Assembly: GCA_965197745.1 (NCBI GenBank)
Contig: CBDANS010000007.1
Span: 1,628,306-1,692,305 of the forward strand
Length of the DNA stretch: 64,000 nt
Source of the DNA: Opitutales bacterium
Lineage (GTDB): Bacteria; Verrucomicrobiota; Verrucomicrobiia; Opitutales; PNEW01
Direction of reading: 5' to 3'
Shown: piece after piece, positions 38,368 to 61,825 of the stretch
Position numbering within the stretch: position 1 is the stretch's first letter
Layout: every line of letters begins with the position of its first letter
The notes under the pieces: model-generated
What the model was told of the DNA's origin: nothing
Databases searched by the model: none
Seen by the model: only the letters and a program-made list of their open reading frames with translations
Made by a program: the position numbers and the translations under genes

Positions 38368-38961
38368 ATGAATACACTTCAAGAGATATTGAATTCCGTT
38401 TTAGCAGATTCCGACCATGACGAGTACTCTGATGATCTGCAAGCAGCATCAACCGATATTATTCTTAGTTATGCCGACCCAATTGCCGACTCTATATTAG
38501 CCAGACTAAAGCAGAATTCACAATCTATGTTGAAACAAAAGTGGCGGGACCAACGACAATTTGAGAAGAGGTTGAAGAAGCGTTGGAGGAGGCCGCTAGA
38601 TCTCCTTAACCTGTTTATATCAATAGCTATAGAAGCCGGTGACGATTTTAACCGTGAGTTCCGCAACGCCGCCGCTCGGTCAAGTGATACTGTATTTGAG
38701 GCACTTACCAGGATGCACGCCAGAGCGTGCCAGGTATCATCTGCCATTCTCGTCCTACTGCGCTCCGGTTATGCAGACGACGCACACGCCCGGTGGCGAA
38801 CTCTGCATGAGATTTCGGTGATAAGCTCTTTCATTAGTGAGCATGGTCAGGAACTAGCAGAAAGATATCTGCTACACGATACCATACAGCGATATAAGAT
38901 GGCATGTCAGCACCAAAAATATAAAGAGCGTGGTCGTGACCACGAAAACTGGTCCACTTGA
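38368..38961 (+). pseudogene. DUF5677-like protein, 3'-truncated by IS insertion (the native part ends near 38936)
   Basis: All-alpha; the core ARACQVSSAILVLLRSGYADDAHARWRTLHEISV matches the DUF5677-type A....R...E pattern. The last 8 codons and the stop lie inside the IS-C left inverted repeat. Confidence 0.5.
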
Positions 38962-38997
38962 AAAGTTAGTCTGGTCCAACTAGAAAGGACACAGACA

Positions 38998-40240
38998 ATG
39001 AAAGGCAAAAGATACACGACCGAAGAGAAAATACGGATGCTGCGCCAGGCGGACAAAGGGAAAACGATCCTGGAAGCATGCCGCGAGAACAACATAAGCG
39101 AACAGACCTTCCACCGCTGGAAACGTGAGTTTGGGATGATTGATGTCAACCAGGCCAAGCGGATGAAGGAGCTCTTTGAAGGAGAACGCGCGGTTAAAAC
39201 GGATGCTGGCGGACAAGATGCTGGGGATAGAGATCCTGCAGGAGACCCTCGAAAAAAAACTGTAAGCCCTGGGCACAAGCGGCAAGTGGCAGAGAGACTT
39301 GTGACTCGGGGCCAGTGTTCGATGCGAGCGGGGTGCCGGTACTTTCGGCTGCACCGTTCCACCTATGCGTATAGGGCCAAGCATCCGGATGCCTGGCTAA
39401 CGAAACTAAAAGCGGCAGTAAGGCGGTTATCACGGCAATACGCGAGGTGGGGCTATCCCAAGATCACGAAGCTGTTGAAGGACGAAGGCTGGCAGGTGGG
39501 TAAACGTCTCGTGCAACGTCTGCGACGTGAACTGGGTCTGGCGATCCCCCCACGCAAGCCAAGACGCCGGCGCAGGGATGTCTGCACCGGGCTACCGACA
39601 AAGGCCGAACATCCCGACCATGTTTGGACCTGGGATTTTATCCACGATAAGACGGTTCGCGGCGGCAGTCTAAAAATGCTGACCGTGCTCGATGAGTACA
39701 CCCGCGAGTGCCGGGTGATCCATGTTGATCGCCATATCAATGCGGAAACGGTGCGCGGTATCATGCAAAAACTGCTCGACCGGCATGGGCCGCCAAAATA
39801 TATTCGTAGCGACAACGGTTCCGTTCCGAGGAGCGAAGCGACGACATGCAAAGCCATTCATTGAAAGCCAATTGAGAGCCTGGCTAACTGCGATGAAAAT
39901 CAAAACCCTCTATATCGAACCAGCAAGCCCTTGGCAGAACGGATACATTGAATCGTTCCATGCCCGTTTTCGCGAGGAGTGTTTAAACCGTGAACAGTTA
40001 TGGACTTTGACCGAAGCCCGCGTGGTCATCGAAGATTGGCGCTGGCTTTACAATCATGTCCGACCCCACCGCAGCCTCGGCAACATCACTCCACGGCACT
40101 TCACTGAAAACCTCAATACCGAAGGCTCGGGCTCCATTCGGGCTACGCCCTCATTGCGCCCAAGCCTTGACTTCCTCTACCAACTTAACTTCAACATTAA
40201 CCTCTCCAGACTAACTCTCCCGGTGGACCAGTTTGTGTAA
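38998..40240 (+). pseudogene. IS-C transposase (orfAB) pseudogene
   Basis: The HTH N-terminus MKGKRYTTEEK.. is out of frame with the leucine zipper (ENARLKRMLADKMLGIEILQETLEKKL is readable only in the +1 frame). The rve core is DEYTRE...SDNGS[34-nt insert]FIESQLRAWL...SPWQNGYIESFH. Confidence 0.8.
39823..39856 (+). repeat. Short intragenic insert, type T2 (34 nt)
   Basis: gttccgaggagcgaagcgacgacatgcaaagcca lies between SDNGS and FIES. It matches the T2 copy in IS-A at 33 of 34 positions. Confidence 0.8.
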
Positions 40241-40242
40241 CC

Positions 40243-41612
40243 CGACCAGCCTGCTGACCCCAATCGGTATAGCGACAGACAAAACATCGGCCCCTTTCTT
40301 CGCGGAACGGATTCGTGCTTGTTCTGTGAAGGCATTCCTTGCGTTCGAAAACCGGCGGGGATGGCTTTTCCCTGATATTCATCATGAAGAACAGCCGTCC
40401 ATAATTGTGTTCACACTGTCCCAGCATCAATTTACTGACTTCGAATTCTGTGTCCGTATCTCGTCATGGGAACAGTTCAACGACTCCAATCGACGCTTCC
40501 GGGTATCCGCGAACCTCTTGAGTGAGGTTAATCGGAATACTGTAACCGTACCGTTGTTCCGTACCATGCGCGACGCTGAACTGACCACAGCGATTTACAG
40601 CCGCCTGCCGGTGTTGGTCGATCGATCATCGGGCGAGGAAGTTAAGGCATGGCCGGTGAAATACTCGACAATGTTCCATATGACCAACGACTCCGGCCTG
40701 TTCCGCACGCGCGAGGAGCTTGAGGAAAAGGAAGGTGCATATCACGTCGGTAGTAACCGCTTTGCCAGTCCGTCCGGAGACTGGGTGCCGCTCTATGAAG
40801 GCAAGATGATACAGATTTACAATCACCGCTACGCGAGTGTTCGTGTCAATCCCAAAAACATCAGTGGGCAAGGGGTGTCCGAAAAAACGGGGGCTGCGAC
40901 ACTTCAAGACCCCACATTCGTACCTGATCCGAGGTATTGGGTCAACACGATGCATATTTCAGAAGACGATCGTGAAAGATGGCGAATCGGTTTCAATGAC
41001 GTCTGTAATACGAACAACGCGCGAAGTGTTATTGCGTGCGTTGTTCCACATGCTGGATTCGGTAATACGCTACCGATCCTTTCTCTTGAGGAGAAGGCAC
41101 CTGATTTAGATCTTGTTCTGTTGGTTGCGAACCTCTGTGCACTTGTTTTCGATTATGTCGCCAGACAAAAAATCCAATCACGGCACCTGAACAAGTACAT
41201 CCTGGAGCAACTCCCGGTCGTCCAGTCCACCCGCTACAAAGCTGTCCACTTTGGAAAGAAGACCACCGCCGAAATTGTCCAAGAGGCCGTTCTTGAATTG
41301 ACCTACACCTCTGATGATATGGTCCAATTCGCTCACGATATGGGCTATGTCGATGAGGCGGGTGCAGTAAAACAGCCATTTTCCTGGAATAAAGATCGCC
41401 GTCTTCACCTACGCGCCAAGCTAGACGCCGTGTTCTTCCATCTTTACGGTGTCACAGACCGCGATGACATCCGCTATATCTATTCAACCTTCCCGATCGT
41501 TGAACGCAAAGAGAAGGCAACTTATCGTGGCGTGTACCGTTCCTGCGAACTTTGCCTTGCCTATATGAACGCTCTTGCCCATGGAAAACCGGACGCGGAG
41601 GTAAAGCTTTGA
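40243..41612 (+). pseudogene. C-terminal part of a large N6-adenine DNA methyltransferase / type IIG-like restriction-modification enzyme (5' truncated by IS-C)
   Basis: Motifs RDAELTTAIYSRLPVL, MFHMTNDSGLF and PLYEGKMIQIYNHRYA are recalled from the C-terminal halves of Eco57I/Alw26I-type methylase proteins. No methyltransferase domain is present. The ORF opens inside the IS-C right end, and its TGA is the first triplet of the next IS-like sequence. Confidence 0.45.
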
Positions 41613-42241: not shown

Positions 42242-42373
42242 TACGTTTACAAATCGGTATATGATATTACGGACAGTGTCAGATTCAAGAGCAGCTTGTA
42301 CGTATGTTTCTTCCCTAGCAGAGTTTCGATTTGATCCAGCAGTGTCAATTAGATCAAGTCGCAGCACGTATCA
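42242..42373 (+). repeat. MITE-like element, short (internally deleted) copy
   Basis: Inserted between IRSD and NG. Homologous to 61390-61582 at both ends (..tacaaatcggtatatgatattacggacagtgtcagattcaagagc.. and ..cgatttgatccagcagtgtc..agatcaagtcgcagcacgta). Confidence 0.55.
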
Positions 42374-42407
42374 AACGGTTTGTAGCACAAACAGTGAGAG
42401 AAGTACT

Positions 42408-42434
42408 CCTCAACAAGCGATAGCGAGAATAACA
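42408..42434 (+). repeat. Short intragenic insert, type T3, 3' half only
   Basis: cctcaacaagcgatagcgagaataaca compares with cctcaacgagccaaagcgagaataaca in IS-A. The 5' half was removed by a deletion whose junction lies in a shared CTCAA microhomology. Confidence 0.6.
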
Positions 42435-42473
42435 AATGTCCATGGTGCGTCTTTTTATCTTCCACTGCGTAAC

Positions 42474-42511
42474 GTACCAAGGAGCGCAGTGACGACATAG
42501 CAAAACACTCA
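42474..42511 (+). repeat. Short intragenic insert, type T1 (38 nt, diverged copy)
   Basis: gtaccaaggagcgcagtgacgacatagcaaaacactca lies between ..PLRN and (C)LNQEWF. Confidence 0.7.
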
Positions 42512-42778
42512 TGCTTAAATCAAGAATGGTTCCTAAGCGTTACCGAAGGGCGTGTTGTTATTGAAGCGTGGAAGCAAAACTAAAATGCCCAATATCCTCA
42601 TAGTCGTTTAGGCTTCCTCTCTGCCAATGCTTTTGCCAAACTCTGGCACCAACTCGATCCTACAAGTGCTGGCTCCACGAGCCCTACGGCCTATCTTCGC
42701 CAGCATCTCTTAAACCAATTATAGATAACCCATCGAATGGCTCTCACTCAACTTGGGTGTAATTATGAAGTCCAATCA

Positions 42779-42985
42779 TTGGTACAAAGGATATGCGGAA
42801 AGCTTCAATAATCATTTAAGAACTGAGTGCCTTGAGCACAAGTTACTATACACCCTGACTGAATCCCACGTGGTAATCGAACAATGGCGTCATACCTACA
42901 ATCATGAACATTCCCACCGTCGTTTAGGCTTTAAAAGCCCACTAACGTTTGTCAGTTTCTTTTCCGATCCTGAAATTAGGTAATG
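42779..42985 (+). pseudogene. IS3-family transposase C-terminal fragment (third variant, uninterrupted at the T1 site)
   Basis: W YKGYAESFNNHLRTECLEHKLLYTLTESHVVIEQWRHTYNHEHSHRRLGFKSPLTF. It starts exactly at the SPW|QNG codon position, directly after the preceding IS end. Confidence 0.7.
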
Positions 42986-43837
42986 AAAGATGAATCAAGA
43001 ATACTTACTATTGATGTCGCAGACTCAATCTGTGATGCGTCGATTGCATTATCGAACCAGACAACAGATGTTAAAACAGATTCTTGGCATCATATTAAAG
43101 GTTCGGTTATATATGAAAAAATAGTAATCAGTTATCTGCGTGTTCTGCGATTTATACCCAATAGTAAATACTATAGTCCAATTGGTAAATTCAAAGTCTG
43201 GGACTTTTCATCAACAGCATCGATTACAAGAAGTATTATTGAAGCATACTTCTGTTTGTTTTACATATGCATTGAAAATGTAAGTAATAAAGAAAAAGAG
43301 AAGAGAAAGCTTCTTTGGCTATACCATGAGAAAAATGAGAGACACAAAATGCTTAAGATAGCTTTGCCCAATTCGAAATATGTTGGTAAATTATATGATA
43401 AAAAAGAACGTCTTAGAAAAAAATTAGTAACCCACACTTGGTTCCTGAAACTTAAACCAGGACGACAAGAAGAACTATTAAAAAAAGATGTAAGCAAATT
43501 GGATGGAAATATAGAGATATGCAAAAAAGCAGGAATCAATCAAAATTATTACCAACCAACCTTTAAGTTTCTATCAAATTTTGCACACACTTCACCATTT
43601 TCAATTTATCATATAGACTCAAAGTACATTACTGAAAAGAAAGCGAAGTTATTATTCGGCCACATTGCTAACATTGCATCTGGCTTCTCTGTGATTGCTC
43701 TAGAAGATTACGCTAAGCTCTTTCCAGAGCAATCCCTTGATAACTCAGAGATTAATGAATATATTAATATTTGGAGAGAAATAATGCAGTGGGAGAAGTC
43801 TGAATATTTTGATAAATCTGAGGTTGACTCTAATTGA
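42983..43837 (+). CDS. Hypothetical protein, DUF5677-like (AT-rich cargo gene)
   Basis: 284 aa, helical. Contains SITRSIIEAYFCLFYI (R-x3-E pattern shared with 38368 and 47679) and a downstream FLSNFAHTSPFS. Its ATG overlaps the stop of the preceding fragment (TAATG). Confidence 0.4.
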   Translation: MKDESRILTIDVADSICDASIALSNQTTDVKTDSWHHIKGSVIYEKIVISYLRVLRFIPNSKYYSPIGKFKVWDFSSTASITRSIIEAYFCLFYICIENVSNKEKEKRKLLWLYHEKNERHKMLKIALPNSKYVGKLYDKKERLRKKLVTHTWFLKLKPGRQEELLKKDVSKLDGNIEICKKAGINQNYYQPTFKFLSNFAHTSPFSIYHIDSKYITEKKAKLLFGHIANIASGFSVIALEDYAKLFPEQSLDNSEINEYINIWREIMQWEKSEYFDKSEVDSN

Positions 43838-44047
43838 TGAGCATGCTTGTCAATGCCTGGCCATAAAGGTATCGTGTTCGCTAAAAGCGAAGACGTGGTA
43901 CAAGTCCTAGTCGAAGCTATTGAAGAGTATGGCAGAGCCCAATGCATCCGCTCCGATAATGGTTCGCAGTTCGTAGCACAAAAAGTCACAGAAGCATTCC
44001 TCAAGAGCCAGATCGACATTATCTCCATCACCCTTGGTAGTCCTCGG
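43836..44047 (+). pseudogene. IS-B-lineage transposase internal fragment (from the DE-YTR position to GSP)
   Basis: DEHACQCLAIKV..SEDVVQVLVEAIEEYGRAQCIRSDNGSQFVAQKVTEAFLKSQIDIISITLGSP. Nucleotide homology to 48790-48990 (reverse strand). Confidence 0.7.
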
Positions 44048-44912: not shown

Positions 44913-45237
44913 ATGTATTTGATGTTATACTCCTAATGCGGACTCGCATGTATTAGGTGTGAGATTGATCGGACTGGTTGGACCCCGTATTTCGTACCAA
45001 TTTTTAAGTGAGAGAACTACCGGGTGTTAATGGTATTAGGATTGATGTATATGAGAGATCTTGGCGCAGTGAGGGCGTAGCCCGAACGCGGCCAGGATCT
45101 GAAAGGAATCAGACAAACTCTTGTGGGCTTTGAAAGCCTAATCGACTGTGAGGATGTTCATTGTTATAGGTCTGACGCCATTGTTCGATTAGAACTTGCG
45201 CTTCAGCCACGCTGAGCAACACTTCAGGGTTCAAACA

Positions 45238-45275
45238 TGAGCGCTTCGCTATGTCGTCACTACGTTCCTCGGTAC
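45238..45275 (-). repeat. Short intragenic insert, type T1 (38 nt)
   Basis: The gene strand reads gtaccgaggaacgtagtgacgacatagcgaagcgctca. It carries an in-frame TAG and shifts the frame. Confidence 0.85.
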
Positions 45276-45314
45276 ATCGCGTAAGCGGTTGTGAAACGAC
45301 TCGATGAAACCGTT

Positions 45315-45359
45315 TGTTATTCTCGCTTTGGCTCGTTGAGGTGTCGCTTCGCTCGGTAG
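45315..45359 (-). repeat. Short intragenic insert, type T3 (45 nt)
   Basis: The gene strand reads ctaccgagcgaagcgacacctcaacgagccaaagcgagaataaca, replacing the Gln codon of SPWQNG. It stays in frame and has no stop. Confidence 0.85.
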
Positions 45360-45437
45360 CCAGGGACTGCCTGGTTGGATATAGAGGGTTTTGATTTTCA
45401 TCGCTGTTAGCCAGGCTCTCAATTCCTTTTCAATGAA

Positions 45438-45471
45438 TGGCTTCGCATGTCGTCGCTTCGCTCCTCGGAAC
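45438..45471 (-). repeat. Short intragenic insert, type T2 (34 nt)
   Basis: The gene strand reads gttccgaggagcgaagcgacgacatgcgaagcca, between SDNGS and FIEK. Confidence 0.85.
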
Positions 45472-45597
45472 ACTGCCATTATCACTGTGGATATAGCTGG
45501 GAGCTCCCTCCTTTTCAATGGCCTCGCTAAGCACAGAGAGGACATCGGTTGAGGTGAGCTGTCGAGCTACCCGGATGCGTAAACATTTACGCGTATA

Positions 45598-45642
45598 TGT
45601 CTTCGCTTCGCTTGAGTGTCGTCGCTTTCAGCTCCTCGGTAC
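45598..45642 (-). repeat. Short intragenic insert, type T4 (45 nt)
   Basis: The gene strand reads gtaccgaggagctgaaagcgacgacactcaagcgaagcgaagaca, replacing the Glu codon of LIDEYTR. It contains an in-frame TGA. Confidence 0.85.
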
Positions 45643-46070
45643 ATCGATCAAGGTCATCATCTTTAGCATACCGCCATTGTCTGTACGATCATGGACAAAG
45701 TCCCAGGACCAGACGTGATTGCGACCGGTTGCTTTAGTAGGGAGCCCAGTAGAGATCCCCTGACGGTGTCTACGCTTTTTCGGGGGCTTTACCTGTAAGC
45801 CCGAAGAACGTCGCACTGCCTGTACAAATTTCCTGCTTGCCGCCCAACCTTCCTTCACCAGCAGGGCACGAATGCGCCGGTAACCGTAACGGGGATGTTC
45901 CCAGGACAAGGTCAAAATCCGCTCGGCCAATTGCTGAGCCTTCTTACTGGCCTGCTTGGGTCGGTAGCTGTACGTTGACCAACTGAGGCTGAGATAAGCA
46001 CAAGCCCTCCGAAACGAGCACAGCCCCTTCTCAGCCGCATCTTTTACTGCTCGCTTCTTCTGCTTTGGGC

Positions 46071-46337
46071 TCACCATTTTTTTGAGAGCGTTTCCTCCAA
46101 CACCCGAAGCTTGAGCATTTGATCAGCGAGCATCTTCTTCAGCTCCGTGTTCTCCTTTTCCAGTTCTTTAAATCGCTTCGCATCAGCCAGCTCCAAGTTG
46201 CCATACTTTTTGCGCCAGCGATAGAAGGTCTGTTCACTTAGGTTGTTGCCGTGGCAGACTTCCTGCACGGTTTTGCCCGTATCGGGCTGCCGGAGTATTG
46301 CTATGATCTGTTCTGTTGTATATCTTTTTCTTTTCAT
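46071..46337 (-). CDS. IS-A copy A orfA (HTH + leucine zipper)
   Basis: MKRKRYTTEQIIAILRQ...LSEQTFYRWRKKYG...KRFKELEKENTELKKMLADQMLKLRVLEETLSKKW. Start taken at the Met at 46337. Confidence 0.8.
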   Translation of the reverse strand: MKRKRYTTEQIIAILRQPDTGKTVQEVCHGNNLSEQTFYRWRKKYGNLELADAKRFKELEKENTELKKMLADQMLKLRVLEETLSKKW

Positions 46338-46402
46338 TGAGGTTATCTGTTTATCCCGATAACCTCTCTCTGTTAATGATACCATTTTTTGGGGTCACTC
46401 CA

Positions 46403-48398: not shown

Positions 48399-48687
48399 GC
48401 TTGCTCTTCTCCAATCGAGTATGATTAGACCCCATAATTACTACCAAGTTAAGTGAGAGCCATTCCGTGGGTTATCTGTTGTTGGTTTAGCAGATGCTGG
48501 CGGAGGGAGGCCGGAGGCCGAGTGGAGCCAGCACCTGTTGGATTGAGTTGCTGCCAGAGTTTGGCAAAAGCGTTGGAGAGAGAAAGCCTAAACGACTATG
48601 AGGGTGATGGGTATTGTATTTTTGCTTCCCCGCATGGATGACAACACGCGCTTCGGTAACGCTTAGAAACCACTCTTGGTTTAAGCA

Positions 48688-48725
48688 TGAGTGCTTCGCT
48701 ATGTCGTCACTACGTTCCTCGGTAC
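48688..48725 (-). repeat. Short intragenic insert, type T1 (38 nt), in the IS-B lineage
   Basis: The gene strand reads gtaccgaggaacgtagtgacgacatagcgaagcactca, between HNRLRD and CLNQEWF. It matches the IS-A copies at 37 of 38 positions. Confidence 0.85.
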
Positions 48726-49653
48726 GTCACGCAGTCGATTGTGAAAGGATTCAACATGGCCGTTCTGCCAAGGACTGCCAGGGTCGATGTAGATAATGTC
48801 GATCTGGCGCTTGAGGAGTGCTTCTCTGACTTTTTGTGCTACGAACTCCGAACCGTTATCGGAGCGGATGCATTGGGGTCTGCCATACTCTTCAATAGCT
48901 TCGACTAAGACCTTGCACCACGTCTTCGCTTTTGAGCGAACGAGATACCTTTATGGCCAGGCATTGACGGGTATACTGATCGACACGGTGAGAATGCGGA
49001 AAGGGCGGCCGTTGACCAGCCGATCGCTCATAAAGTCCATCGACCAGCGTTCCTGGGCAGCTGAAGCCGCGGGCAGTGAGACCCGCCTTTGCGCGGCACG
49101 CTTCTTACGTTTCTTCGTGCGCACTTCCAGCCCTTCGGCCTTGTAGATCCGATAGACGCGTTTCTTTCCTACCGACCAGCCCTCCCGCTTTAATAACACC
49201 GTGATTCGCCTATACCCGTAGCGCACACGCGCGGCGGCGAGGTCTCGTATGCGCACAATCAGCGCGCGTTCGTCCCTCATCACCGGCTGATAGTTATAAC
49301 TCGACCAATACAACTGCATCAGCCTGTACGCCCGGCGTTTGCTAACTTCATAAGCTTCCACTAACCACTCAGCAATCACCTTCTTGCCCACTGGCTTTAC
49401 AACTTTTTTGAGATAACTTCCTGCACCATGTGCTTGTCCAGGCTCAGATCAGCGACCAGCTTCTTCAAACTGGCGTTCTCTTCGTCGAGTTGCTTCAGCC
49501 GTCTTAATTCACTGATTCCCATGCCCGTGTATTTACCCTTCCAACGGTGGTAGGTCTGTTCGCTCACCCCTAACTCCCGGCACCCTTCGGCGATCCTTCG
49601 ACCACCTTCTACCTGCCTTAGGGCATAGATGATTTGTTCTTTATTATAGCGTT

Positions 49654-49681
49654 TGTCAGGCCTTCTCGGCTGCGCCTCGTT
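49654..49681 (-). repeat. Possible additional short insert (T5, about 28 nt) in the orfA 5' end
   Basis: Absent from the homologous position of copy 2 (53550-53583). The gene strand reads aaacgaggcgcagccgagaaggcctgac. It shares only CGAGG/CCGAG/GAC elements with T1-T4. Confidence 0.4.
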
Positions 49682-49784
49682 TTCCTTTGCTTTTCATGGA
49701 TCGTTCTTTCTCCTATTTTTATTAGCTTTTCTACCCACGCCAGACTAAATCTTTCCTGGTCCAGTTTTACGGGGACAGGTCAAT

Positions 49785-52456: not shown

Positions 52457-53639
52457 TGATATGCTCCCATTTACTAGACCAAGCTCAGTGTTAGGATTTG
52501 CTGGTTGGAGGGGGGCGGTTATCAGTTTGCATATGGCTTGCTGGGCGTATTCGGCCGGAGGTCGCCGGAGGCCGATAGCCCAGCGAGCTGCGTAGTCTTT
52601 GAGTATTATAATCGAGGCGGTATGGTGTAAGCTTTTCCCGTGCCTCAGTCAGGGAAAAGAAGATCTCTGGGTTAAGGAGTTCGTCGCGTAGCTTGCCATT
52701 GAAGAACTCAATGTAAGCGTTCTCTGGTCGGTCTACCTGAGAACTCGGGCCCGCTATCGACGGTGATGGCCTTGGGTAAACCACCGGTGTTTACCGATGC
52801 TCTCTCCAGCACCTCGATGACTTTGCCGGCGTCGATGGACTGATCGGCGTAGAGCACCGGGCAGAGCGGTCATAGCGATCCACTACTGTAAGCACCCGGA
52901 AACACCGCCCATCCGCCAACTTACCCTCCATGAAGTCCATGCTCCTGTGTTGGCGTGAGGCTCGGGCTTGAGCCAACTGCACCTGTGGCAGGGAAGCCCA
53001 CTTCTTACGTTTTTGGATGCGCACTTCCAGCCCCCTCGGCCTTGTAGGTGACGTAGACACGCTTTGTGGCCCACCCGGCCAGCATCTCGCTTTAGCAAAC
53101 ACTGTCGGACGCCGATAACCGTAACGCATGCGCAATGCTGCCAGATCGCCGATACGCACGGACAGAGCTCGATCGTCCGGTTTTGGCTTGGGCCAACACA
53201 TAAAGCTTGACCCGTTAAGTTGCAGCAGCCTGAACCCGCAACGGTAGCTGATCTCGAAGACCTCAGCGGCCTTACCCACCAGCTGCACCTTGCGTACAGG
53301 CTTCAGAGCTATATTGAGACGATCTCCTGCAGGATATGTTTGTCCAGGTTCAGGTCGACCACCAGCTTACGTAAGCTGTTGTTCTCGTCTTCCGGCTTCT
53401 TCAACCGGGGTAGCTCGCTTACGCCTATGCCGCATACTGCTTCTTCCAGCGGTAGTAGGTCTGCTCCGAGACTCCTGGCTCGCGACACACATCGGCGATC
53501 CTGCGACCGCTGTCTGCTTGCCGCAAAGCGTAGATGATTTGTTCTTCTTTATAGTCTTTATAGCGTTTACCTTTGCTTTTCATAATGGACCGGGTTCCAT
53601 TCTATGAACCCCGATCCAACCCAATGGGATCAACCTGCA
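52457..53639 (-). mobile_element. IS-B lineage, copy 2 (degenerate)
   Basis: The right end TGATATGCTCCCATTTACTAGACCAAGCTCAGTG is homologous to the copy 1 right end. Transposase pieces: MKSKGKRYKDYKEEQIIYALR, MRYGYRRPTV, FRVLTVVDRYDR, AYIEFFNGKLRDELLNPEIFFSLTEAREKL. Confidence 0.7.
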
Positions 53640-53640
53640 T

Positions 53641-53950
53641 ACCCGGCGTTTGCTTACCTCATAAGCTTCCATTATCCACTTAGCTATCGACTTTTTGCGC
53701 AAAGGATTAATTTGCTGATTCCTAAACCTGTATATTTACACTTCCAACGGGGGTAAAGGCCTTGTTCGCACAACTCGGACCTTCGGTATCCCTTCGTCCG
53801 CCTTCTGCCTGCTTTATGAAATAGATCATTTGCTCTTTATGATAACGCATGCCTTTTCTACTGATGGGTGGTTTTTATCCTGTCTTTTATCAGGTTTTCC
53901 TCCCATGAAAGACTAAATCTTTGCTCGTCCAGTTTAATGGGGTCAGGTCA
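53641..53950 (-). mobile_element. IS-B lineage, 5' fragment with internal deletion (copy 3)
   Basis: Ends in GACTAAATCTTTGCTCGTCCAGTTTAATGGGGTCAGGTCA (left inverted repeat, homologous to 49741-49782). Contains orfA-5' and orfB-5' pieces only. Confidence 0.6.
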
Positions 53951-54533: not shown

Positions 54534-55052
54534 TTCACTCAAAAATTATTGACCGATTCCTGGCTGAACCTTACCAAAAAAGTATTCCTGCCCATTCCTG
54601 CCAAACATTTTGAGGCAAGGTCAGGAAATTAGAGGAAAATATAAATTATTATTGTGCCGTTATTTAAGTATAACTAATTGTTAATAAGCAGTTTATAAGG
54701 CATTATTGAGTCCCGTTCATAGTCGGTTTCATCGAGTCGTTTCACAACCGCTTACGCGATGTACCGAGGAACGTAGTGACGACATAGCGAAGCGCTCATG
54801 TTTGAACCCTGAAGTGTTGCTCAGCGTGGCTGAAGCGCAAGTTCTAATCGAACAATGGCGTCAGACCTATAACAATGAACATCCCCACCGTCGATCAGGC
54901 TTTCAAAGCCCACAAGAGTTTGTCACATTCCTTTCAGATCTTGGCCGCGTTCGGGCTACGCCCTCACTTCGCCAAGATCTCTCATATACATCAATCCTAA
55001 AACCATTAACACCCGGTAGCTCTCTCACTTAATAATTGGTACGAAAAACGGG
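54534..55052 (+). repeat. Duplicated composite segment S1 (about 200 bp AT-rich sequence fused to the last ~320 bp of IS-A)
   Basis: Homologous to 61098-61814. The junction ...cccgttcatagtc|ggtttcatcgag falls one codon after the T3 position. It ends in the IS-A right inverted repeat ...cggggtccaatca. Confidence 0.8.
54761..54798 (+). repeat. Short intragenic insert, type T1 (38 nt)
   Basis: gtaccgaggaacgtagtgacgacatagcgaagcgctca lies between NRLRD and CLNPEVLL. Confidence 0.85.
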
Positions 55053-55254
55053 GTCCAATCAGTTTTTTAGAATATAAATTTAAAAAAGCGGTAAGGATCA
55101 GCTGAAGCTCAGCCACTGCTGAGCTATTGCGATTAAGCACCGTGTTTCACCTAACTTATATCCTATGTATACTCTGCGCTCTCTGCGTCTCCGCGGGAAA
55201 ACATTTGCTGAACTGAATGTTGTATATTTAGATGTAACCCTATTAATCTAAGGC

Positions 55255-57940: not shown

Positions 57941-58217
57941 GAAGGAGACCCGTGTGATCGGACCCCGTTATTCGTACCAATTATTAAGTGAGAGAGTTAC
58001 CGGGTGTTAATGGTTTTAGGATTGATGTATATGAGAGATCCTGGCGCAGTGAGGGCGTAGCCCGAACGCGGCCAGGATCGGAAAGGAATCTGACAAACTC
58101 TTGTGGGCTTTTAAAGCCTAAACGACTGTGGGGATGTTCATTGTTATAGGTCTGACGCCATTGTTCGATTAGAACTTGCGCTTCAGCCACGCTGAGCAAC
58201 ACATCAGGGTTCAAACA

Positions 58218-58255
58218 TGAGCGCTTCGCTATGTCGTCACTACGTTCCTCGGTAC
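58218..58255 (-). repeat. Short intragenic insert, type T1
   Basis: Identical to the copy at 45238-45275. Confidence 0.85.
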
Positions 58256-58294
58256 ATCGCGTAAGCGGTTGTGAAACGACTCGATGAAACCGTT

Positions 58295-58339
58295 TGTTAT
58301 TCTCGCTTTGGCTCGTTGAGGTGTCGCTTCGCTCGGTAG
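58295..58339 (-). repeat. Short intragenic insert, type T3
   Basis: Same sequence and position as 45315-45359. Confidence 0.85.
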
Positions 58340-58417
58340 CCAGGGACTACCCGGATCGATATATATCGCCTTGATGTTTTTTTCACGCAACCACCGCTGT
58401 ACTTGATGAGCGATAAA

Positions 58418-58451
58418 TGGCTTCGCATGTCGTCGCTTTGCTCCTCGGAAC
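58418..58451 (-). repeat. Short intragenic insert, type T2
   Basis: The gene strand reads gttccgaggagcaaagcgacgacatgcgaagcca. Confidence 0.85.
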
Positions 58452-58577
58452 ACTGCCATTATCACTGCGGATATAGCTGGGAGCTCCCTCCTTTTCAATG
58501 GCCTCGCTAAGCACAGAGAGGACATCCGATGAGGTGAGTTGACGAGCTACCCGGATATCCAGACATTCACGCGTATA

Positions 58578-58622
58578 TGGCTTCGCTTCGCTTGAGTGTC
58601 GTCGCTTTCAGCTCCTCGGTAC
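58578..58622 (-). repeat. Short intragenic insert, type T4
   Basis: Same as 45598-45642 except for one base at its 3' end (..gaagcca versus ..gaagaca). Confidence 0.85.
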
Positions 58623-59050
58623 ATCGATCAGAGTCATCATCTTTAATGGACCGCCATTGTCTGTGCGATCATGGACAAAGTCCCAGGACCAAAGGTGATT
58701 GCGACCGGTTGCTTTAGGAGGCGACCCTGTAGAGACTCCTTGACGGTGTCTGCGCTTTTTTGGTGGCTTTACCTGTAAGCCCGAAGAACGTCGCACTGCC
58801 TGTACAAATTTCCTGCTCGCCGCCCAGCCTTCCTTCACCAGCAAGGCACGGATGCGCCGGTAACCGTAGCGGGGATGTTCCCAGGACAGGGTTACAATCC
58901 GCTCGGCCAACCGCTGAGCTTTCTTACTGGTCTGCCTGGGCCGGTAGCTGTACGTTGACCAACTGAGGCTGAGATAAGCACAAGCCCTCTAAAACGAGCA
59001 CAGCCCTCTCTCAGCCGCATCTTTTACTGCTCGCTTCTTCTGCTTGGGGC

Positions 59051-59317
59051 TCACCATTTTTTTGAGAGCGTTTCCTCCAACACCCGAAGCTTGAGCATTT
59101 GATCAGCGAGCATCTTCTTCAGCTCCGTATTCTCCTTTTCCAGCTCTTTAAATCGCTTCGCATCAGCCAGCTCCAAGGTGCCATACTTTTTGCCCCAGCG
59201 ATAGAAGGTCTGTTCACTTAGGTTGTTGCCGCGGCAGACTTCCTGCACGGTTTTGCCCGTATCGGGCTGCCGGAGTATTGCTATGATCTGTTCTGTTGTA
59301 TATCCTTTTCTTTTCAT
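59051..59317 (-). CDS. IS-A copy B orfA
   Basis: MKRKGYTTEQIIAILRQ.. with the leucine zipper intact. Confidence 0.8.
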   Translation of the reverse strand: MKRKGYTTEQIIAILRQPDTGKTVQEVCRGNNLSEQTFYRWGKKYGTLELADAKRFKELEKENTELKKMLADQMLKLRVLEETLSKKW

Positions 59318-59384
59318 TGAGGTTATCGGGTTATCCCCATAACCTCTCTCTGTTAATGATACCATTTTTGGGGGTCACTCCATT

Positions 59385-60959: not shown

Positions 60960-61081
60960 TGTACTTGTTGCCTTGTTGCAACTTGATCTAACAGACACTG
61001 TTTTATCAAATCGCAACTCTTCCAGAGAATAACATTGATTGTTTTCTTCTCAACTTCCAATCAAATAATAAGTTATCGTCG
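60960..61081 (-). repeat. MITE-like element, right-half copy in inverted orientation
   Basis: tgtacttgttgccttgttgcaacttgatctaacagacactgttttatcaaatcgcaactcttccagagaataacattgattgttttcttctcaacttcc... is the reverse complement of 61468-61580 with a few substitutions. Confidence 0.7.
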
Positions 61082-61315
61082 TGGAGTGCCCCAAAAATCC
61101 ACTCGAAAATTCTTGGCCGATTCCTGGTCGAATATCATCAAAAAATATGATTCCTGCCAAACATTTAGAGGCAAGGTCAGGAAGTTAGAGGAAAATATAA
61201 ATTATTATTGAATCGTTATTTACGTGTAACTAATTGTTATTAAGCAGCTTAAAAATCATTATTGAGTCCCGTTCATAGTCGGTACATCGAGTCGTTCCAC
61301 AACCTCTCACCCGAT

Positions 61316-61353
61316 GTACCTAGGAACGTAGTGACGACATAGCGAAGCGCTCA
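61316..61353 (+). repeat. Short intragenic insert, type T1
   Basis: gtacctaggaacgtagtgacgacatagcgaagcgctca. Confidence 0.85.
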
Positions 61354-61389
61354 TGTTTGAACCGTGAAGTGTGCTCAGTGTGGCTGAAG

Positions 61390-61582
61390 TGTACAAAACG
61401 GTATTTGATATTAGGGACAGTGTCAGATTCAAGAGCCGCTTGTACGAATATTTTCTTCTCAACTTCTGACGATAACTTTTTGGTTGATCGGAAGTTGAGA
61501 AGAAAACAATCAATGTTATTCTCTGGAAGAGTTGCGATTTGATCAAGCAGTGTCTGATAGATCTAGTCGTAACAAGTACAGC
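61390..61582 (+). repeat. MITE-like element, full copy (about 191-193 bp)
   Basis: Interrupts ..SVAEA|QVLIE... Flanked by the duplicated CTGAAG (61384-61389 and 61583-61588). Ends TGTACAAAAC... and ...AACAAGTACA. Internal near-perfect hairpin TTCTTCTCAACTTC-N23-GGAAGTTGAGAAGAA. Confidence 0.7.
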
Positions 61583-61825
61583 CTGAAGCTCAAGGGGTAA
61601 TCGAACCATGCCGTCATACCTACAACCATGAACATTCCCACAGTCGTTTAGTCTTTAAAAGCTCGCAAGAGTTTGTCAGTTTCCTCTCCGACCTTGGCCA
61701 CGTTCGGGCTGCGCCCTCACTTCGCCAGGATCTCTCATATACATCACTCCTTAAACCATTAACACCCCGTAACTCTCTCTCTTAATAATTGATTCGAATA
61801 ACGGGGTCCAATCAGGTTAATTAGG

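Follow-up and report, generated by a model that had tools for sequence, protein, structure and literature searches.

The stretch of DNA analyzed here (the window, 64,000 nucleotides [nt]) lies on the 2.29-Mb contig CBDANS010000007.1 of an Opitutales bacterium, from a long-read metagenome assembly (ENA ERZ25072076), and its closest relatives in the genome collection are metagenome-assembled genomes (MAGs) of Opitutales (Verrucomicrobiota). Positions 1 to 36 kb hold ordinary genes, and 36 to 64 kb form an island rich in insertion sequences (IS), with 4 near-complete IS3-family elements and several fragments. The transposase genes of these elements are interrupted by short inserts, T1 to T4, which are the subject of this work. 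The carriers are:

IS-C, 38931-40248, plus strand: IS3-family element; T2 is its sole insert
IS-A1, 44975-46402, minus strand: T4, T2, T3, and T1; OrfA and OrfB otherwise fully open
IS-B, 48422-49782, minus strand: IS3-family element; T1 is its sole insert; further frameshifts besides
IS-A2, 57955-59382, minus strand: the same 4 inserts as IS-A1 and 1 nonsense codon
IS-A 3′ fragment, about 54594-55061: carries T1
IS-A-like fragment, about 61150-61814: carries T1
Dead IS-B-like 3′ fragment, 42378-42778: carries T1 in decayed form and the remnant of a T3

A profile search of the window found 11 copies (6 T1, 3 T2, and 2 T4), all inside IS3 copies. In the following list, which also includes T3, position 48725 of T1 in IS-B is the retained target G, and slashes enclose the codon or bases affected, here and below:

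48688-48725, minus strand: T1 in IS-B; 37 nt (48688-48724) in place of the AG of the Glu codon between FHNRLRD and CLN
45238-45275, minus strand: T1 in IS-A1
58218-58255, minus strand: T1 in IS-A2
54761-54798, plus strand: T1 in the IS-A 3′ fragment
61316-61353, plus strand: T1 in the IS-A-like fragment; 1 change, CCTAGG
42474-42511, plus strand: decayed T1 in the dead IS-B-like 3′ fragment; 6 changes
39823-39856, plus strand: T2 in IS-C; site DNGS/E/F
45438-45471, minus strand: T2 in IS-A1
58418-58451, minus strand: T2 in IS-A2; 1 change, GCAAAGC
45598-45642, minus strand: T4 in IS-A1; site LID/E/YTR; net +42 nt; in-frame TGA
58578-58622, minus strand: T4 in IS-A2
45315-45359, minus strand: T3 in IS-A1; site GSPW/Q/NG; net +42 nt; reading frame stays open
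58295-58339, minus strand: T3 in IS-A2
42408-42434, plus strand: T3 remnant in the dead IS-B-like fragment

Read on the IS coding strand, 48688-48725 is GTACCGAGGAACGTAGTGACGACATAGCGAAGCACTCA. A preliminary description of this DNA had listed T1 in IS-B, IS-A1, and IS-A2; these copies stand, but the 2 copies in IS-A fragments and the decayed copy had been missed. The latter has decayed to about the same extent as its flanks (83%). The alignment of IS copies also bears out that IS-C carries T2 and lacks T1, T3, and T4.

Inserts T1 and T2 are better conserved than the surrounding transposase DNA

Pairwise MAFFT alignments with sliding windows confirmed the higher conservation of T1 and T2 relative to the adjoining transposase DNA, a contrast that is real and statistically strong. 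T1 of IS-B differs from both IS-A copies by a single change (G to A, GCGCTC versus GCACTC), that is, 37 of 38 positions match, as the preliminary description had counted, versus 680 of 1268 (54%) in the rest of the IS-A1/IS-B alignment; outside T1, the best 38-nt window reaches 29 of 38 (mean 17.5; binomial P = 1.8e-9 for T1). The immediate flanks, put at about 60% identity by a hand count (22 of 36 upstream), match at 25 of 39 positions upstream (the T3-T1 interval) and at 38 of 60 downstream. The reported match of T2 between IS-C and IS-A (33 of 34) was reproduced for IS-A1 and is 32 of 34 for IS-A2, with 54% identity elsewhere (P = 3e-7). For T2, mostly different nucleotides had been noted in the upstream codons. 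In IS-A2 and the other A-lineage copies, identity to IS-C is about 50% in either flank of T2, but IS-A1 matches IS-C at 56 of 61 positions downstream, up to the T3 site. Flank identity raised beyond the insert was found only there, and was absent for T1 between A and B and for T2 between IS-C and IS-A2 or other A copies.

Insert identity is 97% to 100%, versus 85% to 90% for the ±60-nt flanks within lineage A and 45% to 65% between lineages, and IS-A1 and IS-A2 differ at 2 of 154 insert positions versus a proportion of synonymous differences (pS) of 0.205. When insert and flank were compared across 16 IS copies, flanks sorted strictly by lineage (A, B, C) and inserts did not.

The inserts replace 2 bases at a defined target

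The 16 aligned copies come from the window and from loci of a genome scan (L numbers below), and the empty sites are those of copies 85% to 95% identical to filled ones. The empty T1 site CGCGATG/AG/TGTTTG becomes G[TACC...GCTCA]T (net +35 nt); the empty T2 and T4 sites are GGCAGTG/AG/TTCATT (net +31 nt) and ATCGATG/AA/TATACG (net +42 nt). These empty/filled pairs give the rule 5′-(Y)G/AR/T to G[TWCC...CA]T, in which a Glu codon loses its AR to the insert; no target-site duplication was seen in empty/filled comparisons at T1, T2, T4, and a tRNA D-loop. The intact 1278-nt IS contains 4 TGART sites in sense orientation, 3 of which are the T4, T2, and T1 sites, the fourth being the catalytic IES codon. 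IS-B reads GGAGT where T2 would sit and lacks GAR where T4 would, IS-C reads GGAGT at the position of T1, and all these sites are empty; judging by sequence, site occupancy in both elements fits the (Y)GART rule. The base at −1 is A or G, outside strict YGART, at two of the sites from other genera. Because the IS has 4 sense TGART sites and 1 antisense site, the apparent sense-strand bias is weak evidence. By eye, variant-specific bases showed no guide-like complementarity to target flanks.

T1, T2, and T4 are variants of one family

On the coding strand, T1, T2, and T4 have a common layout: T(A/T)CCGAGGA, a mini-hairpin, GACGACA, a short spacer, GCGAAGC, a short tail, and CA. This layout, together with the junction rule, indicates a single element family, of which the three are variants and whose target is defined. 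The mini-hairpins, of 2 to 3 bp with a mostly GNA loop (GCGAAGC, GCGCAGC, GCGTAGC, ACGTAGT, GCTGAAAGC, ATGCAAT), are the sole structural signal found in the inserts. The outer pair of hairpin 1 covaries (GC 13, AT 6, GT 1, unpaired 0), which none of 500 shuffles reached, and GCGNAGC is known to form an exceptionally stable DNA mini-hairpin (PMC13037366). The invariance of the 3 boxes across genomes carries no weight because the search pattern fixed them. The inserts are not palindromic, and their DNA and RNA folds, with and without flanks, were no better than those of shuffled sequences (z −0.8 to +1.5).

T3 belongs to a related second family. Its 5′ part, TACCGAGCGAAGCGAC, is common to T1, T2, and T4, and its 3′ half resembles T5, an insert seen in related genomes in orfA (net +27 nt, in-frame TGA; L011, L054, L041). 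T3 and T5 both have the 5′ TWC(A)CGAG-CG.AAGCG of T1, T2, and T4 but a different 3′ half (ACGAGC..AAGCGAGAA). T3 is also present in the B-lineage copies L047 and L056, and a T3-like insert occupies the same site in Ruficoccus (L040).

Rfam gave no match to the inserts in the window, and tRNAs only across 15 related loci. A protein-level search with three-frame translations of the inserts returned no usable matches, and a literature search for comparable elements and for the sequence strings themselves found no description, so the family is apparently undescribed so far. A sequencing adaptor or assembly artefact was rejected: known adaptor sequences do not match, and genome records from isolates of other genera contain the family as well.

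Evidence that the inserts postdate the divergence of the IS lineages

Presence of the inserts is patchy among close copies, and all 4 combinations of T4 and T2 occur (of the 5 inserts T1 to T5, those not named for a copy are absent from it):

IS-A1, IS-A2: T4, T2, T3, T1
L011: T5, T4
L023: T2, T3, T1
L043: T3, T1
L051a, L057: T2
L058: T4, T2, T3
L066: T4, T2
L041: T5, T1
IS-B: T1
IS-C: T2

Filled and empty copies with identical flanks exist (e.g., L058 and L041 at T4), as do fully intact copies in which all 5 sites are empty, with an identical OrfB at 3 loci. Empty sites read GAG or GAA, which a filled G[...]CAT cannot give back; the empty state is therefore ancestral and the filled state derived. 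Between A and B, the flanks of T1 already diverge at positions −5 and −2 on one side and +3 and +6 on the other, i.e., 2 to 3 nt from both junctions, so that homologous conversion does not account for the shared insert and site-specific insertion is needed. Patchiness, flanks that follow the lineage, and intact insert-free copies together argue that the inserts were acquired after the lineages diverged and without flanking DNA, and flank-free entry of young inserts into homologous sites explains why they appear so much less changed than the transposase sequence on either side.

Could the inserts instead date back to the common ancestor of IS-A, IS-B, and IS-C and have descended vertically, with some losses? 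The same variant does occupy the homologous site of different lineages, and lineage signatures exist (all B-lineage T1 copies read GCACTC, those of lineage A GCGCTC). However, the local flank genealogy joins filled A copies with empty A copies and not with filled B copies, deletion of an insert could not recover GAG or GAA, intact copies are empty at all 5 sites, and a neutral 38-nt insert could not hold 97% identity while its flanks fell to 54%. We regard this explanation as barely credible, in agreement with the preliminary description, which had argued against inheritance from one interrupted ancestor: flanks sort by lineage, and identical inserts recur from one lineage to another.

Variants are tied to sites: in whichever lineage a site is filled, it holds the variant particular to it (lineages A and B for T1 and T3, A and C for T2 and T4, and an IS5-like pair described below). 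One doubly interrupted element has multiplied: at least 15 full-length IS copies with T4 and T5, 99.9% to 100% alike, lie at different loci of MAG CBDCNV01 (L011, L015, L022, L026, L035, L038, L047, L054, L061, L063, L067, L070, L071, L078). Each insert is in frame and has a single TGA. The near-identity of these copies at separate loci indicates that the doubly interrupted IS has transposed many times recently, and such a burst of an element with disabling inserts would imply mobilization in trans.

IS lineages recombine at the inserts

IS-A1 is A-type everywhere outside the T2-T3 interval, where it carries a patch that IS-A2 and the other A copies lack:

45360-45437, minus strand: IS-C-type patch in IS-A1, between T3 and T2; about 79 nt, with 88% identity to IS-C versus 63% to the other A copies

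Similarly, A-type sequence gives way to C-type at T2 in L051b, and L084, an A/C chimera, has its switch at T3; all 4 of 4 chimera junctions lie at T2 or T3. Crossovers are expected there because the inserts provide the only identity, 33 to 45 nt, between lineages whose identity is otherwise about 53%. In this way they serve as portable homology for recombination between lineages.

Such exchange raises the possibility that each insert arose once by accident and was spread and kept identical by homologous copying alone. Recombination between copies is indeed frequent (the patch in IS-A1, the chimeras L051b and L084, and a synonymous divergence, dS, that changes strongly from one part of the element to another), variants are site-specific, and a T2 remnant at L098 resembles a template switch between filled and empty copies. 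Within lineage A, moreover, the 10 to 30 nt nearest T4, T2, and T1 are invariant, so that short-patch copying there would leave no trace. Several observations speak against this explanation: the differences close to T1 in A and B leave no stretch of homology for conversion of the RecA type, T2 in A and C has both flanks about 50% identical in all copies except IS-A1, and conversion would have homogenized the flanks as well, yet these stay at 85% to 90%. The same junction rule is also seen at unrelated sites in other genera (tRNA loops, an IS5-like gene, another IS3 position), and therefore de novo insertion must occur. Copying as the whole explanation is in our view rather unlikely. The preliminary description had left site-specific acquisition and short-patch conversion side by side; acquisition is what the A-B comparison supports, and conversion could still act within lineage A.

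Effect of the inserts on the transposase genes

When the 4 inserts are removed from IS-A1, OrfB is open over its full length. Both T1 (+35) and T2 (+31) cause frameshifts, and a TGA is present in T4 and in T5. Reassignment of UGA was rejected, since TGA is an ordinary stop here, ending 5 of 31 genes. The ratio of nonsynonymous to synonymous divergence (dN/dS) among A-lineage copies is 0.12 to 0.25, including IS-A1 versus IS-A2 (dS 0.24), and in pairs that share T4 it is 0.15 to 0.25 over OrfB, also downstream of the stop-bearing T4. A truncated transposase acting as a repressor does not explain these low values, as the region downstream of T4 is equally constrained.

Frames are also repaired. 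At L098 (2053-2100; P0014, a cluster of 42 member sequences), the T2 site holds a 21-nt in-frame remnant, GGCAGTG-TTCCGAGGAGCGAAGCG-AGTG-AGTTC, composed of 17 nt of T2 and a repeated AGTG, which restores the transposase frame and looks like the product of template switching that involved one filled and one empty copy. Frame restoration recurs in T3, which is translated in frame (P0015), and in a 39-nt IS5-like variant.

An open OrfB beneath the inserts would be expected if these were intervening sequences, taken out of mRNA or DNA or read through, whose sequence is held by selection. Several observations agree with this: the inserts change far less than synonymous sites (2 of 154 versus pS 0.2), the low dN/dS extends over the whole of OrfB and past T4, IS-A1 is fully open but for its 4 inserts, the most prolific IS seen (at least 15 copies) has T4 and T5 in frame with a single UGA each, inserts of dead fragments decay at the pace of their flanks, and site-specific variants with flank-free transfer recall retrohoming. 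Nevertheless, there is no Rfam family and no significant predicted RNA fold, 33 to 45 nt are too few for known self-splicing RNAs, and excision cannot restore the Glu codon because its AR is lost. For read-through, direct reading found no take-off and landing codon pair conserved between A and B: the sole candidate, CGC...CGC in lineage A, is absent from B (CGU...CAC). T1 and T2 shift the frame, TGA is a stop, and selected in-frame derivatives (P0014, T3, the IS5-like variant) would be needless if inserts were removed. Intact insert-free copies exist, have transposed, and can account for the purifying selection. We consider removable inserts, and an intron-like reading in particular, unlikely. 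On the simplest view, the copies under selection are the insert-free ones, and the inserts are recent disabling arrivals.

Related copies in other genomes and contexts

We scanned 1 genome per species with the pattern CCGAGGA-N7-9-GACGACA-N1-6-GCGAAGC; the matches listed are part of all. Among these, Opitutales dominate (2 IS-rich MAGs, Pelagicoccus, Lentimonas, Ruficoccus, Cerasicoccus, Puniceicoccaceae, Opitutaceae), with a few Woeseiaceae and scattered chance-like matches in GC-rich genomes. A viral scan gave 1 match, apparently by chance. Further transposase sites are DNGP/E/F in Cerasicoccus, EDWRW/K/YNN in a Ruficoccus IS3, and LSDEET/E/F in an IS5-like gene. The IS5-like genes with the LSDEET motif at L017 (5780-6682, Lentimonas) and L050 (about 6118, a different Verrucomicrobiota MAG) share a 39-nt T1-like variant, with 39 of 39 positions matching versus 64 of 90 in the upstream flank; 1 extra base in this variant removes the stop and yields an in-frame insertion of 13 residues (VPRNVVTTTAKRS). 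All gene-borne copies examined are in sense orientation. Further copies lie in intergenic hairpins of other genera.

A second context is tRNA genes. Partial 3′-end copies of tRNA-Ser and tRNA-Asn carry the element in the T-loop at TTCG/AA/T, and Woeseiaceae-like contigs do so with tRNA-Phe. The intact tRNA-Ser reads GGTCGAATGG and the adjoining partial copy GGTC[GTACC...GCGCCCA]TGG. The loci, with the element in the T- or D-loop of partial tRNA copies, beside intact tRNA-Ser or tRNA-Asn or, in Woeseiaceae-like contigs, tRNA-Phe, are:

L006, 6770-6990
L019, 1040-1330
L020, 360-570
L028, 270-440
L008, L088, L092

A metagenome scan with the consensus 3′ end found 6 loci, 4 of them tRNA 3′-end copies. 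No integrase lies beside the tRNA-linked copies at L006, L019, and L092, where neighbours are housekeeping or unknown proteins, and an element moved by a tyrosine integrase at a tRNA gene was rejected for this reason. At L006, a 110-nt unit (tRNA 3′ end, spacer with a palindrome, and element) is tandemly duplicated. The first 9 nt of the element, GTACCGAGG, are identical to the variable-arm/T-stem junction of tRNA-Ser(GGA).

These contexts bear on whether a dedicated system acts on transposase genes, as a host anti-IS device that writes cassettes at conserved Glu codons or as recombination sites that shuffle modules. In its favor, only conserved catalytic-domain blocks of DDE transposases from at least 2 IS families are hit, no copy lies outside IS genes in the IS-rich genomes among the matches listed, all 4 of 4 chimera junctions fall at inserts, and 3 of the 4 sense TGART sites of the IS are occupied. 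Against it, no associated gene was found (the tRNA-linked neighbours are housekeeping genes without an integrase, and the unknown open reading frames [ORFs] of the window offered nothing relevant), crossovers at inserts are expected anyway where these are the sole identity between 53% identical lineages, and pseudo-copies in tRNA loops and intergenic hairpins in other genera are unlike an IS-specific defence. A dedicated system is improbable on this evidence.

Other features of the IS-rich island

By Pfam and NCBIfam, the unknown ORFs of the island include no nuclease or recombinase. The sole match is weak: an ORF of 459 aa directly downstream of IS-C (40233-41612), with no Pfam match, has one sub-threshold match to adenine methyltransferases of the Alw26I type (E = 2.5e-8, 33 bits, cut-off 353). 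Nested debris at 42378-42972 and 43836-44047 flanks ORFs with DUF5677 and DUF4238; it consists of an IS-A-like 3′ fragment (42851-42972) adjoining the dead IS-B-like fragment and of an IS-B-like piece (43836-44047). A 109-nt inverted repeat (60972-61080 and 61468-61576, 91% complementary, 387 nt apart) adjoins the IS-A-like fragment with T1 at 61316, and a 65-nt direct repeat is common to 42245-42309 and 61389-61453. At 53001-53950 lies the 5′ portion of another IS3 lineage, which has about 67% identity to IS-B and its left end at 53950.

A proposed family of very small insertion elements

We propose that T1, T2, and T4 are very small (33 to 45 nt), non-coding, non-palindromic insertion elements that enter at (Y)G/AR/T and are younger than the divergence of the lineages that carry them; we assign this a probability of roughly 0.6. 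The element would enter DNA in a single orientation at 5′-(Y)G/AR/T-3′, replacing AR and duplicating nothing. In DDE transposases the target would be a Glu codon followed by T, in the conserved blocks LID-E-Y, DNGS-E-F, and RLRD-E-C, and homologous sites of different lineages would be entered without flanking DNA. A putative enzyme may mobilize the element in trans; the GNA mini-hairpins make single-stranded DNA a possible substrate. Short-patch copying from one IS copy to another probably adds to the spread within a lineage, and interrupted IS copies presumably keep transposing with transposase from intact copies.

Several points weigh against this proposal. No mobilizing enzyme for the element was identified, and to our knowledge the replacement of AR without duplication fits no transposition chemistry. 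YGART is far too common in the genome to explain why only IS are filled, so that survivorship together with IS amplification, or a link to IS intermediates, is needed; among the matches listed, the 2 IS-rich genomes have no copy outside IS genes. The tie between site and variant is not what random insertion from a common pool would lead one to expect. The low dN/dS downstream of T4 is compatible with recent acquisition and equally with inserts that spare function. Finally, the burst of at least 15 near-identical copies with T4 and T5 demands efficient mobilization in trans, and IS3-family transposases prefer to act in cis.

A bolder possibility, speculative and in our view doubtful, is that the cassette of about 35 nt is the cis part of a new system in which a trans-acting enzyme writes it in fixed orientation into (Y)G-AR-T sites of transposase genes and tRNA-like loops and homes it without flanks, as a hyperparasite of IS or a disabling device of the host. 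In a stronger version, the cassettes may be removed again from RNA or DNA and so gate transposase expression.

If the proposal of very small insertion elements is correct, the family disables transposases at conserved Glu codons in at least 2 IS families, and autonomous IS copies become non-autonomous yet still proliferate. The inserts would also provide a concrete mechanism for IS mosaicism, as the sole identity at which diverged lineages recombine, and would explain many Opitutales transposases annotated as split pseudogenes. The two-base replacement and the flank-free transfer between homologous sites would point to an insertion chemistry not yet described.

Comparison with known systems

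MITEs (miniature transposable elements with inverted repeats) and other small non-autonomous insertion elements of bacteria (e.g., Correia elements) are likewise short, non-coding, repeated, found inside genes and mobile elements, and presumably mobilized in trans, with copies more alike than their surroundings. Unlike them, the element has no terminal inverted repeats (its ends TWCCGAGG and GCNCCA are not complementary) and no target duplication, its 33 to 45 nt are far below typical MITE size, its orientation is fixed to an asymmetric target, and 2 target bases are replaced. No parent element was found in the loci examined; compared by eye with the host IS ends (TGGAGTGACCCC and GGGGTCCGATCA), only the 3′ CCA is similar.

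Repetitive extragenic palindromic sequences (REPs) and REP doublets forming hairpins (REPINs) are mobilized by REP-associated tyrosine transposases (RAYTs), and repeats tagged GTAG/CGTC are intragenic in Opitutus terrae (PMC3733652). The element resembles them in length (REPs are 20 to 40 nt), bacterial order, occasional coding insertion, and small hairpins possibly recognized as single-stranded DNA. REPs, however, are palindromes with stems of 5 to 13 bp and a GTAG or CGTC tag, mostly extragenic and paired (PMC3733652), whereas the element has two GNA mini-hairpins of 2 to 3 bp and no overall palindrome and folds no better than shuffled sequence. GTAG occurs only in the loop of the T1 variant, and the 64-kb window contains no RAYT (IS200-like Y1) gene.

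With mobile group II introns, which spread by retrohoming and are often found within IS, the element shares site-bound variants in a conserved gene block, sense orientation, flank-free transfer, and the life of a mobile-element parasite. Site-specific homing without co-conversion of flanks, seen here between lineages with 45% to 65% identical flanks, is a behavioural resemblance only: the element is about 10 times too small for the ribozyme, has no domain V and no Rfam match, and destroys 2 exon bases. An archaeal bulge-helix-bulge intron was also rejected; minimum-free-energy folds pair the junctions differently in T1, T2, and T4, and no common pairing was seen by eye, the consensus variant included.

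Translational bypass elements are known from T4 gene 60 and from the byps of Magnusiomyces mitochondria, coding inserts of 27 to 55 nt in mobile families. The element differs in having no take-off and landing codons conserved across lineages, no consistent stop after take-off, and selected in-frame derivatives.

Very small dispersed repeats of cyanobacteria reportedly insert into genes and mobile elements (Elhai et al. 2008), and Rickettsia palindromic elements are tiny gene-inserting repeats, some tolerated as in-frame peptide insertions. These repeats have other sequences and are palindromic or hairpin-based, and neither is known to have a defined G/AR/T replacement target; in-frame tolerance is shared with T3 and the IS5-like variant. 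Should the proposal hold, the family would be among the smallest bacterial insertion elements seen, and one that standard repeat and MITE finders would miss because it has no palindromes, terminal repeats, or target duplications.

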